This document shows, one piece after another, positions 4,380 to 55,169 of a DNA stretch of 64,000 bases (position 1 is its first letter; each line of letters starts with the position of its first letter). The stretch is from assembly GCA_964106645.2 (NCBI GenBank), contig OZ067043.1. One strand, 5' to 3'. The position numbers and the translations under genes were made by a program. A model generated the notes under the pieces. It made no database searches, was not told the DNA's origin, and saw nothing but the letters and a program-made list of their open reading frames with translations. Source of the stretch: Podarcis pityusensis (Eukaryota).

Positions 4380-4424
4380 CTATTTCTTAGGTCTGTTGAT
4401 CTGGGCATAGAGAGGCTCTCTTTC
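4380..4424 (-). CDS. DAB1: Candidate alternative DAB1 C-terminus at the start of the last exon: EREPLYAQINRPKK*
   Basis: GAA AGA GAG CCT CTC TAT GCC CAG ATC AAC AGA CCT AAG AAA TAG starts exactly at the acceptor in phase 0, compatible with the phase-0 donor of exon 13. Translation is not demonstrated. Confidence 0.55.
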   Translation of the reverse strand, partial: EREPLYAQINRPKK

Positions 4425-7849: not shown

Positions 7850-8195
7850 TGGCGCTGTGAGTTAAACCACAGAGCCTAGGAGCCACAGAGCCACAGAAGG
7901 TTGGCGGTTCGAATCCCCGTGACGGGGTGAGCTCCTGTTGCTCGGTCCCTGCTCCTGCCAACCTAGCAGTTCGAAAGCATATCCAAGTGCAAGTAGATAA
8001 ATAGGTACCGCTCCGGTGGGAAGGTAAACGGCGTTTCCGTGCGCTGCTCTGGTTCGCCAGAAGCTGCTTAGTCATGCTGGCCACATGACCTGGAAGCTGT
8101 ACGCCGGCTCCCTTGGCCAATAAAGTGAGATGAGCACTGCAACCCCAGAGTCGGTCACGACTGGACCTAATGGTCAGGGGCCCCTTTACCTTTAC
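7850..8195 (+). mobile_element. Sauria SINE (lacertid type, subfamily A), 5' end slightly truncated and rearranged
   Basis: B box ggttcgaatccc, core cctgccaacctagcagttcgaaagc...gtagataaataggtacc, 3' tail (ccttta)n. Confidence 0.93.
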
Positions 8196-11600: not shown

Positions 11601-13112
11601 TCTTAATGCTTTTTCAGCTAGACTATTATTTAACTGTAAATTTCCCCTACCTGATGAAAGTGCGGGAGAGCCAAAACGGAACACCTGCTCATCCCTCCCT
11701 TTAAACTGTCATAATGCTGATATGGAGCCATACAATGTGCAAACATTAAAAAGCAAAGCACAATAGTATAGTTCAAACTGATGGGGAAAGTGGGATAAAG
11801 GAACATATTTTAAAGAGACAAAGTAGTTATTGAAGAGTCTGACACCCCCTTAGTTGTATACTGCTTAGAAATCTAAAGCCACAAATGACAAAGCAAACAT
11901 TTCAAATTTACCTCTTCTTTAAAATAAAAAAAAGTAACTGAGGAAGTGAGACTGCACATACTTCAGGGATGACAGTGGTTTCAGGTGAGGGCAGAAATGG
12001 TTTTAGGCTCATGGGAAAGGGACTATTGGATAGCAGCTAGTACATTCAGATATCTGTGGTTGGAAGCACATTCTTAAAAGCCTGGAAACCGATGCACATT
12101 ATGCACTAAAAATAAATCCACCATTTCCATTAATTTGTTTCATATGCTCCATACACAGAAAGATGAGCAATAAATCACATAGTGCTTGAACTGTTTCAAA
12201 TCACAGCACAGTGTAATAAAAGAAACATTTTTCATATGGCAGCATTGGAATACATTTGAGATGAGATGGGGATGTTCAACACTCACAGGCACTGTAGCAT
12301 CACAATCTTTCTGACAAAACAGATGCCAGAATAAAAATAGCCACGGTCACCCTCATAAAACATCTATCAACACCCACAACATGCAGCGTGCAGTTAACAA
12401 TTAAAGCAATTGTGTTGCCTTAGCATTTTGTCATGGAAAATATATATTTAAAATGGTATGGTTATATGTTCTCTGTATCAATGGGTTGTTAACCCGTAGA
12501 CATCAACATTGTAATTTAATATTTTCATTAGACCCTTTAACTAATAGGTTTTCCAATTGACCATTATTGTGGCCACAGAGTGGGAAGGCACATTTAATTT
12601 ATTGATGGTGCTTAATTCCTTCTCTTAAAAAATATGTTGCACTGCTGATGTCATTCCAGTCCTGGATGAACATTGTCTGCCACTTTGCAATTTCTATCAG
12701 AAAAAGATAAAATGCACAATATACAAATATCTTAAATGCTAATCATGAATACCAGAAACTACAGAGCATCAATATTCTGTAAGAAAAACAACAACTATGA
12801 ACCTGTTGTTGATAATCTCTCATTTCACAGTTGCTGTAATATATATTTTCCCTAGGGTTGTATTGTTTTTTTATTATTATTCTTATTCTGACAACACAAA
12901 AGTGCACCACCTAGAAATGGAATTATCAACCAGTGATGCATCAATGGTGTGAGAAGTAGTGAAATGAAGGTATGAAATATTCCATATTGTATATGTGGAA
13001 TATATTATGTTTGTGGCTAGCATCAATGTAAATGAAGGCAGGCAATGGTGAATATGAATAGCTCAAAAGTGACAGAGAGAAAAGGACAGATACCTACCCC
13101 AACCTGCGCTAT

Positions 13113-13196
13113 CTAGCTATCGCCCTGTGGACTTACAGTATCACCAATGGGCTCACCAAATGGATCACTGTTGGATGAGGCCTGAGATCCATCAGG
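13113..13196 (-). CDS. DAB1: DAB1 exon 14 coding part: PDGSQASSNSDPFGEPIGDTVSPQGDS* (exon extends 15 nt past the stop, to 13098)
   Basis: Acceptor ttcttgtattctag; TAG at 13115-13113; followed by ATAGCGCAGGTTGGG|gtaggt. Confidence 0.95.
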   Translation of the reverse strand, partial: PDGSQASSNSDPFGEPIGDTVSPQGDS

Positions 13197-15110
13197 CTAG
13201 AATACAAGAACATAACACCTTTTTTTCTCAACAACAGAAAGGAAAACAAAGTCAGCAGTTATTTTCATGCAGTGGGTGCATTTTAACATGAATATCTATT
13301 GTGGATGAAAATAATTTAAAAGCCATAAACTACAGCTGATATTTCCTAGGACCAACTGCTGCCAGTGGGCCAGCCCTGGATAGGATAGTAAACTGATTTG
13401 AGCTCACAGAAACAGTCTTTTAGGTTAGTGCATTTTGGCCAAAGTTAACTTTACCTTCAAGACTTGGTCAAGAAGCAGACAAATGCCTAGTGCATGGCTT
13501 CTGCTTTAAGCCTGCCTCATTAGTGGTTCTAGTTTGTGATGAGCCATTCATGTGAAGCAGTTGCCATGGCCACGTCTGACTATTTTTGCACCGCAACTCA
13601 AACCCAGCCAAATATGAGTTTTCAGCAATATGAGAGCAATCTGGATCTGTGTATGGTGCCCATAACTGGTTTGTGGTCATCACAAGCAAATTTGGACACC
13701 ACAGATCTGAGACCAGGTTGCAATTATCAATGTGAGGTCATGCTTCTGCTGTCTCCTTGCAAGTGGGGCAGGCACAGAGTCATGCGTTAGCTATTGTATT
13801 CACCACTCGTGCTATTCAACTTAAGCCAAGCCATGTGATTGTACTGACAGCAAAACTTATCCATATTGTCACCTACCCAAGCCACTACACATTGACCTGT
13901 GAAGGGTTGTCCATTCCCAGTATTAAGGTGTATACTTACTTTCATTTTCAAATGTCACTGATTCCCCCCTCCCCCTGGGAAATCAAATGTGTTGTGCTAT
14001 TTTTACAATGTCTGAAGAAATCTGCCAGCTCCTCCCCCTGAAAACAATCTGGTCATATAAAGCATTCCTGTTGAATGCTAGAAAATGGAGAGCATGGATT
14101 CTCTCTTCCCTGCCAGTCATCCTCCCTGGCTTGCCCTGGAGAAAGCAGAGGGAAGAACTCACTACTCTGTAAGATCCTTCCTAGGTTGAGTTCAGCCTGA
14201 AGGTGGCAAAACTCAGACACTGAGTGCCAGGGGCTACATTTTGAACTCCCCCCCCCATTGCATCACACCAAAGTCTCTGAACTCCTTTGTCTTTCAGCCC
14301 CAATATCCTTCTGTGTTTCTAAGGCAGAACTGCAAATTTATATTGGCTACAATGGTGCCATCACACAAAGCTTTGATGGCACACTGCTGCTTCCGGTTCT
14401 TGAAATCTAATTCACAGTTGCGCCTCCTGAATTCTGTCTCTTCGAAGAGCTGGCAGGAGGAGGTAGATACAGACTAATAAATCATGAGAGAACAATCCAG
14501 CAGAAATGTATAACAAGTAGGAACACTCAAATAGACTGCATAAGCTGACATGTAGATAAAAATGTTAAGTTAATCTGTGCAATCTTCCATTTTGACTTAC
14601 ACGTTTTTGCTTCAGCAGTATACGTGCTAGTCTAGCACATATCGGTGCTGATGGGGAAACTGGAAGAGTGAAGTGGGAGCACTGATCAACACTCTGTCCT
14701 CTGTAATTTACATTAGTTGTGAGCAGTCAGGAGAAAATCGGAAGCGTTTGAAGGGTGGGGGAAGAGGGCTGGGTTCATTATTTCTCCTTCCGTTTGATTT
14801 GCATCAAATAAGGAGAAAAATTGAGGGAACATTTGGGTTCATATCCTAACTCTCTATGTTTTGTAGGGCCACCTTCATTGCCCAAAGTCAATGTTAATTG
14901 TCTATAACTGGACTAGGAAACTCTCCTCTATTTTCTTCTACAGTCCAATTTTGCTGATTGAATACTACCTTTAATGTGATCTACAGCAAATGTTTTAGTA
15001 CTCATGCAAAGTAGAACTTGACTATAATTTTCAAAATTTTCAAAACTGTGAACCATGTACATGGTAACTGAGCAGTTTATGGGTTAATGATTTGGAATTG
15101 CCCCACTTAC

Positions 15111-15238
15111 CGCTTCCTGTTCTTCACTTTTACTTGGACTTTCAAAGCCCTCTTCAAAGAGGTCATCTGCAGCAGGGTCACTGGTATGAGATGCTGAGGA
15201 TTTGGATGGAGAACTTTGTCTAGGAGCAGGAGTTGGAG
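15111..15238 (-). CDS. DAB1: DAB1 exon 13 (128 nt): (P)[42 protein letters not shown] (SP-x-K Cdk5-type sites)
   Basis: Acceptor gtctttattcag, donor GCG|gtaagt; phase 1-0. Confidence 0.97.
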
Positions 15239-35286: not shown

Positions 35287-35639
35287 GGGACGCGGGTGGC
35301 GCTGTGGGTAAAACCTCAGCGCCTAGGGCTTGCTGATCGCATGGTCGGTGGTTCGAATCCCCGCGGTGGGGTGCGCTCCCATCGTTCGGTCCCAGCACCT
35401 GCCAACCTAGCAGTTCGAAAGTACCTCTGGGTGCAAGTAGATAAATAGGGACCGCTTACCAGCGGGAAGGTAAACGGCGTTCCGTGTGCTGCGCTGGCTC
35501 GCCAGATGCAGCTTGTCACGCTGGCCACGTGACCCGGAAGTGTCTGCGGACAGCGCTGGCTCCCGGCCTATAGAGATGAGCGCACAACCCTAGAGTCCGG
35601 CAAGACTGGCCCGAATGGGCAGGGGGTACCTTTACCTTT
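35287..35639 (+). mobile_element. Full-length Sauria SINE (subfamily B) with 12-bp TSD
   Basis: Starts gggacgcgggtggcgctgtggg, has B box and tail acctttaccttt; TSD tatttcattcat at 35275-35286 and 35640-35651. Confidence 0.96.
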
Positions 35640-39181: not shown

Positions 39182-39292
<111 letters not shown>

Positions 39293-53723: not shown

Positions 53724-54922
53724 AAAATATACACGAAACAATGCTCCTACTTCCATTATTACCATTTTCAATATAAATCATTTTTTTCTACCCTGTTTAT
53801 ATTTCATTCAACCGCAAGGGGTTCAAACTGGTTTCTAATCATATAGCACTCCAGATCTGAAGCATTAATAAATAATAAGGGAAGACTCACAGCCATAAAT
53901 GTTGAAACATGCACTGCCCTATATAATTTATAGAAGATTCTGGTTAGAAACTACTTCATTTTCAAAAGTCATAAAGGCTCAAGATTTTCTTGGGAGAGAA
54001 TTCCGTAAGTGTGATCCAATATAGTAGTTTCAGTCAATACAGGAAAAGAAATGACTAGGGTTCATTATAAAGCAATAGTGGCATTTTTTTATCTCTGCAT
54101 TACAAGACAGACAATGCACAGGCCATTATGAGCTGAAGAAATGCCAGATTAAGAGTTCATATTTTCCTAGTGGCACATTGATTGAATATTTAATTTCTAT
54201 ACCACTCAATATATTTTAAATACTTCTAAGCAATGTACAAAAAACTAAGGCAACAACAGACAATATTATAAAAATACAGCTACATATAAAAATGTTACAT
54301 TAATACAAAGTTACTCACATATATAAATGAATTTCAGTTCATTTTCCTTCGAACACACTCTTTCCTCTCAACCTCAGGCTTCTCACTCAGAATCCAAACA
54401 AACCTTCAGCTCACCCACAAAAGTCTCACAACAAGAGGAGTTCATGGAAACAGCCTAGTCTCTCCCTCTAGACTTGTTAATTATGGACAGGCCCAAGGTA
54501 GCTGGTACTTCCTCAGGCTGCCTACAGCTGTGTCCTATTCAGCTACACTCACACAGGTGCAGCAGGTTTGTTGAGTGTCCCAGGAGGTGCAAAGGATGGG
54601 AAGTGACTTCCCTCCACTCACAGCCCTTTCTGTCCTGTCATCCTCCTCATCCACCAGCTGGAATCTGCTAGAAGCTTCTACACAATTTTATTAAAATGGC
54701 AACCACCATTTGTTACTAGATCCATTCCTAGATGCATCCACTACTTAAGTCCACAGCATCTGTCTCACCAACAGAAAAAGAGCCATATATTCCATTTGGG
54801 GTGACAGCTATTATCTAGAAGTACAGGAAAATGTTAAATTCTCAAAGGCATGAATTTCCTTAAGTAAGAAGAAGCCTCTTTTTAAACCAGCCCTAAGTTC
54901 ACAAAAGGATTTCACAAAAAAA

Positions 54923-55169
54923 TCCTGCCAACCTAGCAGTTCGAAAGCATGTCAAAGTGCAAGTAGATAAATAGGTACCGCTCCGGCGGGAAGGTAAACG
55001 GCGTTTCCGTGCGCTGCTCTGGTTTGCCAGAAGCAGCTTAGTCATGCTGGCCACATGACCCTGAAGCTGTACGCCGGCTCCCTCGGCCAATAAAGCGAGA
55101 TGAGCGCCGCAACCCCAGAGTCGGTCACGACTGGACCATTAGGTCAGGGGTCCCCTTTACCTTTACCTT
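54923..55169 (+). mobile_element. 5'-truncated Sauria SINE (subfamily A) with 13-bp TSD
   Basis: Close match to the 3' two-thirds of the 7850 copy; TSD taagttcacaaaa at 54894-54906 and 55170-55182. Confidence 0.95.

Follow-up and report, generated by a model that had tools for sequence, protein, structure and literature searches.

A consensus GTAAGT inside exon 14 of a lizard DAB1 is probably a latent splice donor

Background

The window analyzed here, a stretch of 64,000 nucleotides from the lizard Podarcis pityusensis (GenBank assembly GCA_964106645.2, contig OZ067043.1), carries the 3' part of DAB1 on its minus strand. The reading frame usually ends in exon 14, and the last exon encodes a short tail that is translated only when the exon-14 stop is spliced out. 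A preliminary description of this DNA drew attention to a GTAAGT within exon 14 and proposed it as a second route to the tail. Is this motif a donor in use, and when in the history of the gene did it arise?

Our literature search, conducted outside the main DAB1 isoform papers and supplementary tables, found no study of the DAB1 exon-14 donors or of the tail. The terms "exon 14" and "exon 15" do not occur in the main text of PMC3232236 and PMC3044655 as far as it was accessible, and the sections available from PMC5444801, PMC7642464 and PMC7830234 say nothing about the 3' exons of DAB1.

Gene structure

Exon boundaries were placed by mapping two DAB1 proteins, P0006 and P0007, onto the window (Table 1), and exons are numbered after the preliminary description and excerpts of PMC3232236 (exons 7, 8, 9 and 9B). 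A large exon at ~16430-16975 matches DAB1 from Lacerta and Podarcis entries with 100% protein identity. The acceptor AG of exon 14 ends at 13197, the first exon base is 13196, and the coding part (13196-13116) closes with TAG at 13115-13113; its translation is a 100% match to residues 544-570 of lacertid DAB1 (P0007). The exon-14 region has a single match in the genome, ruling out a second genomic copy, and an assembly error is ruled out by the identical exon-14 peptide in other lacertid entries.

Table 1. Positions in the window of the DAB1 exons and splice signals discussed in the text (a slash marks the exon-intron junction).
Feature	Position	Strand	Remarks
DAB1 exon 13	15111..15238	-	ends in phase 0, GCG/GTAAGT; skip isoforms splice it straight to the last exon
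DAB1 exon 14	13098..13196	-	99 nt as far as the distal donor; stop preceded by 27 codons
Candidate internal donor GTAAGT	13131..13136	-	Val-Ser codons of exon 14; last retained base 13137
Older internal donor position CAG/GG	13123..13127	-	after S-P-Q; GT absent in the window
Weaker downstream donor CAG/GTTGGG	13098..13106	-	G at 13103, beyond the stop; putative
Distal donor GGG/GTAGGTAT	13090..13100	-	G at 13097; best U1 match of exon 14
Last exon, coding start	4380..4424	-	EREPLYAQINRPKK followed by stop, frame 0; P0006 residues 544-557; tail maps to 4424-4383
Exon 9 tandem donors	39203..39217	-	CCT/GTAAGT (39214) and AGT/GTAAGT (39208)

The distal donor (GGG/GTAGGT) would be the main donor of exon 14. 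Its use puts the stop 15 nt from the last junction, which is too near for nonsense-mediated decay by the 50-nt rule.

The candidate donor

The reading of ACT/GTAAGT as a phase-0 site within exon 14, upstream of the stop, is borne out: ACT ends at 13137 and GTAAGT occupies 13136-13131, 21 nt ahead of the stop. Splicing from this site would, as proposed, keep 60 nt of exon 14, remove the TAG and continue in frame into the last exon. The junction 13137>4424 gives a predicted product of 558 amino acids on the 551-amino acid backbone, cut after Gly-Asp-Thr (G-D-T). Phase 0 follows by construction, because GTAAGT is the Val-Ser codon pair. The window contains 31 copies of GTAAGT, counting both strands (0.24 per kb per strand). 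Under a mononucleotide model with approximate exon ends, ~0.019 copies are expected by chance in the coding part of exon 14 in any frame and 0.006 in phase 0, against ~0.39 in any frame per DAB1-sized coding sequence. The site is thus unusual for exon 14, but not for a gene chosen post hoc.

With GT at +1 and +2 and GURAG at +1 to +5, the candidate fits the U2-type NN//GURAG class. According to the part of PMC11732430 available, this is the larger class of human donors (53.6%), with a full intronic and a weak exonic side. The claim that the candidate has a better intronic match than the distal donor holds for +1 to +6 (6/6 versus 5/6) but fails over -3 to +8, where the U1 duplex has 6 pairs (-5.4 kcal/mol) for the candidate and 9 pairs (-11.9) for the distal donor. 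The ten mapped main donors of DAB1 form 7-9.5 U1 pairs, all above the 6 of the candidate, and 560 of 2110 GT sites pair with U1 equally well or better. Among the 11 sense-strand GTAAGT copies in the 40,176-nt gene body (4 main donors, 1 alternative donor of exon 9, 5 intronic copies and the exon-14 candidate), the candidate pairs worst. The five intronic copies (14600, 13939, 33184, 36398 and 36666, minus strand) form 7-9 U1 pairs, and two of them, in intron 13, could end unannotated exons.

Other measures favor the candidate. By a 9-mer weight matrix built on human donor frequencies, it scores 6.78 versus 7.0 for the distal donor, and 3 of 11 other DAB1 donors score below it. The predicted probability of being unpaired, obtained by folding, is 0.58-0.64 for the candidate and 0.39-0.41 for the distal donor. 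G is likewise lacking at -1 in donors that DAB1 uses at exons 5, 9, 10 and 12. The candidate thus looks competent, a well-formed NN//GURAG-class donor that by the 9-mer matrix scores like donors DAB1 uses; it is a consensus match within an exon, near a donor that is stronger by U1 pairing and about equal by the 9-mer matrix.

A similar site in exon 9 serves as a positive control within the gene. Its upstream donor, like the candidate, consists of Val-Ser codons spelling GTAAGT with T at -1, lies in phase 0 and stands upstream of the main donor. Unlike the candidate, it is only 6 nt from the main donor, forms 8.5 U1 pairs and is annotated: its use yields isoforms without Val-Ser (such as 549 versus 551 amino acids), found in 17 of the 116 squamate entries listed, from 9 groups, a count that excludes 6 entries with substitutions (I-S, V-N). 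At this position Pseudonaja and Notechis have I-S and Sphaerodactylus has V-N, so that the donor is lost or weakened there. In PMC3232236, the legend to a figure refers to six nucleotides that some but not all products of this DAB1 region contain; these may be the six between the tandem donors of exon 9.

Search for the predicted isoform

To survey annotated isoforms, 441 proteins were gathered from the best 120 of 1285, 159 and 261 matches, with at most 15 members per cluster, and sorted into clades by the species names of their sources; three entries with non-DAB1 tails (P0095, P0314 and P0319) were left out of the clade counts. The isoform cut after G-D-T appears in none of the 116 squamate entries listed (29 taxon groups) and in none of the 441 proteins overall, which speaks against the candidate as a second route in use. 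The squamate entries comprise 90 with full exon 14, 16 that skip it, 8 with other ends and 2 that stop inside exon 14.

A simulated G-D-T isoform scored 54.5 and 53.4 bits with the two search queries, above the ~40-bit floor of the matches listed, so a cluster representative of this kind would have appeared among them. Cluster members were covered in part: for example, two clusters of mainly snake proteins contributed 15 of 34 and 15 of 18 members, and one of mainly bird proteins 15 of 695. Nor is the G-D-T form annotated in Pogona, whose 15 entries contain both the skip form and the exon-9 variant, or in Anolis carolinensis (11 entries), Paroedura (8) or Rhineura (8). Annotation does miss minor junctions, and the absence of the exon-9 variant from all 10 lacertid entries indicates that lacertid annotation is shallow. 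Two partial gene models end at or near the candidate, one from Varanus (P0302, ending GDT) and one from Naja (P0292, ending GD). The gene finders may have chosen the candidate, or an alignment may have stopped there; these ends may be a weak hint that it was picked as a donor.

RNA reads from 4 of the 24 runs listed (X23, X21, X1 and X5) were aligned to the region from the last exon through intron 14 to the 3' end of exon 14. Over the last exon, read depth was 0 in X23, X1 and X5 and below 2 in X21. No DAB1 junction was found among the matches listed, in a target whose exon upstream of the candidate donor is too short to anchor a junction and with 12 joints and 1101 loose ends falling outside those matches. 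The alignments are dominated by a repeat at ~7860-8195, likely a SINE, to which RNA reads and contigs from other places in the genomes of relatives align by the thousand. Open frames similar to it recur near 35300-35550 and 54900-55140.

Annotated routes to the tail

All five groups sampled (squamates, birds, turtles, mammals and amphibians) have annotated forms that skip exon 14. Skip forms account for the 16 squamate entries mentioned above, from 13 of 29 taxon groups, and occur in 13 of 72 bird genera and 9 of 15 turtle genera (22 of 87 together). These isoforms (for example P0006, XP_028589170.1 / XP_033007897.1; mouse P0253 and P0438) have the tail, acceptor and frame in common with the predicted 60-nt form, but they lose all of exon 14 and are annotated, whereas the 60-nt form is not.

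A second set of proteins retains part of exon 14 and continues into the tail. There are 28 among the 441, all joined after Ser-Pro-Gln (S-P-Q) and none after G-D-T. Direct joins to the tail are found in 15 turtle entries, 11 bird entries and 1 reindeer entry, and 1 duck entry is joined via an extra exon. The S-P-Q isoforms (chicken P0126-P0128 and P0430; Pelodiscus P0121 and P0122; Mauremys P0103; reindeer P0130) resemble the predicted form in that they likewise use an internal phase-0 donor of exon 14, remove the stop and join the tail. Their donor in birds and turtles differs from the candidate in lying 12 nt downstream, in being of the AG//GU type as judged by its codons (Gln-Val), and in having no GT in lepidosaurs. 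In these the site is dead, with a Gly codon after S-P-Q (CAG/GG in the window). The proposal of a second route to the tail through an internal exon-14 donor is therefore sound for birds and turtles, at a different site from the one proposed. Since mammals have Ala after S-P-Q, the reindeer model would need a GC donor.

The S-P-Q donor appears to be tetrapod-old, to judge by the residues. Isoforms cut at this donor are annotated for 12 of 87 bird and turtle genera but for none of the 29 squamate groups (Fisher p 0.036), or for 10 of 42 versus 0 of 20 when groups with at least 2 entries are compared (p 0.023), a modest contrast between related, non-independent taxa annotated by mixed pipelines.

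Two further variants were observed in birds. Some (P0069, P0080, P0089, P0135, P0151, P0158 and P0067) carry an additional exon (QYLL...) after exon 14 and ahead of the last one; no convincing match to it was found in intron 14 of the window, where the best (E 2.3) reaches its N-terminal part. In several passerines (P0056, P0060, P0062 and others) exon 13 runs on to a donor further downstream and gains five residues (VSSNK).

Codon history of the donor sites

At the codon that supplies the GT of the candidate, Val is found in 90 of the 90 listed squamate entries with full-length exon 14 (89 V-S and 1 V-N). The V-N entry is the skink Tiliqua (P0027), whose Asn codon cannot keep the G at +5. The 214 listed non-squamate entries with the motif have Ile (212), Leu (1, a bird) or Val (1, the newt Lissotriton, P0400); Val is absent from the bird, turtle and tuatara entries listed, and the one tuatara entry (P0167) has Ile. 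The idea that the site is specific to sauropsids, or was lost in mammals, did not survive this survey. Ile in birds (apart from the one Leu), turtles, tuatara, mammals and nearly all amphibians makes the GT a squamate gain and rules out a sauropsid-wide donor later lost in mammals. Conservation in other reptiles and birds, by which the site was to be judged, is divided: the GT is absent from birds, turtles and tuatara, but Val is present in every one of the listed full-length squamate entries. The human residues N-I-S given in the preliminary description agree with the mammalian proteins in our sample, at the level of residues rather than codons and with no human entry among them. A degenerate pattern scan of metagenome contigs for other reptile DNA gave 0 matches.

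Following S-P-Q, amphibians, birds and turtles have Val, mammals have Ala, and tuatara and squamates have Gly. The states thus run from I-S-P-Q-V in amphibians, birds and turtles through I-S-P-Q-G in tuatara to V-S-P-Q-G in squamates. This order, with the old donor lost in lepidosaurs and a new GT present in squamates, is real at the level of protein residues and is, in our opinion, the most interesting aspect of the finding.

The tyrosine tail

From amphibians to mammals, the tail encoded beyond the usual stop has been retained, and every skip-form tail shown contains a tyrosine. Most amniotes have the motif EPLYA, marsupials and newts ESLYA, and several frogs DPIYA or DPVYA. The skip isoform of the gecko Sphaerodactylus townsendi (P0024) ends in ERGTSAST, suggestive of a frameshift in the last exon, and the tyrosine tail may be lost there. 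In Podarcis the tail contains EPLYAQ and so matches a motif of p140Cap. In that protein EPLYA, which is an Abl substrate, and EGLYA are needed for tyrosine phosphorylation and Csk binding, according to the portion of PMC3561454 available. By analogy, the DAB1 tail might act like the p140Cap EPLYA. Lizards and snakes express DAB1 in the cerebellum, where the protein is also phosphorylated, as stated in the accessible sections of PMC7642464. We regard the tail itself as a more solid lead than the donor.

Interpretation

We consider it probable, at roughly 0.65, that the exon-14 GTAAGT is a latent donor, seldom or never used, and probably a by-product of an Ile to Val replacement in the ancestor of lizards and snakes. 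The replacement would have spelled a GT that happens to lie in phase 0, before the stop and in frame with the last exon. Its independent occurrence in a newt suggests that this is an easy, conservative swap. The distal donor, 39 nt downstream and with 9 rather than 6 U1 pairs, would then win exon definition, so that exon 14 would be included whole and the stop kept. In annotated squamate proteins the EPLYAQ tail is reached by skipping of exon 14, a route common to mammals, birds, turtles and amphibians, for which no replacement donor is needed. In its full intronic consensus, weak exonic side and position near a stronger authentic donor, the candidate resembles latent or cryptic exonic NN//GURAG donors. 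Such donors are normally unused and are activated upon loss of the authentic donor, as the candidate would be if latent. The strength data by themselves would also accommodate some use of the site: the 9-mer score, the predicted accessibility and the DAB1 donors without G at -1 count against a latent reading, as does the fixation of Val in squamates.

Another reading is that the site is a leaky minor donor, producing the 558-amino acid form with the EPLYAQ tail in perhaps 1-5% of transcripts and under no selection. The competent score and accessibility, the service of an exon-9 site of the same type as an alternative donor in squamates, and the shallowness of lacertid annotation are all consistent with this. 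Nevertheless the product is unannotated even in the deeply annotated Pogona, Anolis carolinensis, Paroedura and Rhineura, and the U1 match is the weakest among the GTAAGT copies of the gene. We hold such leakage to be rather unlikely. The suggestion that the candidate is bound by U1 without being cut, weakening the definition of exon 14 and tuning its skipping in squamates, seems to us hardly credible. Skip forms are indeed annotated in 13 of 29 squamate groups and in 22 of 87 bird and turtle genera, but these counts depend on annotation depth, and skipping also occurs in mammals, birds, turtles and amphibians, which lack the GT.

Selection for a replaced donor would be a more far-reaching explanation. 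The S-P-Q donor would have been lost in lepidosaurs through Val to Gly, the candidate gained 12 nt upstream through Ile to Val, and an isoform that combines most of exon 14 with the tyrosine tail thereby restored, the site being kept by selection. The order of codon states fits this sequence of events, annotation includes the S-P-Q isoform for birds, turtles and one deer model, Val is fixed in the squamate entries listed, and both sites are in phase 0. Against it, none of the 29 squamate groups shows the restored isoform, compared with 12 of 87 genera of birds and turtles that show use of the old donor. Moreover, the tuatara, in its one entry, has neither site, which argues that the route is dispensable; the skink P0027 has lost the G at +5; and the newt P0400 acquired Val while keeping S-P-Q-V, which argues that Val needs no splicing reason. 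We consider this turnover improbable, and equally improbable its extension, by analogy with p140Cap, in which a donor of another class would restore an isoform of this Reelin adaptor whose EPLYA tail could recruit Csk and damp Src-family signalling.

If the exon-14 GTAAGT is latent, as we think probable, it is an ordinary cryptic donor of little consequence. If it were instead used and conserved, a gene of brain patterning would offer a clean and datable example in which donor turnover first cost and then restored an isoform. This would suggest that DAB1 requires a product in which the exon-14 segment and the tyrosine tail are combined.
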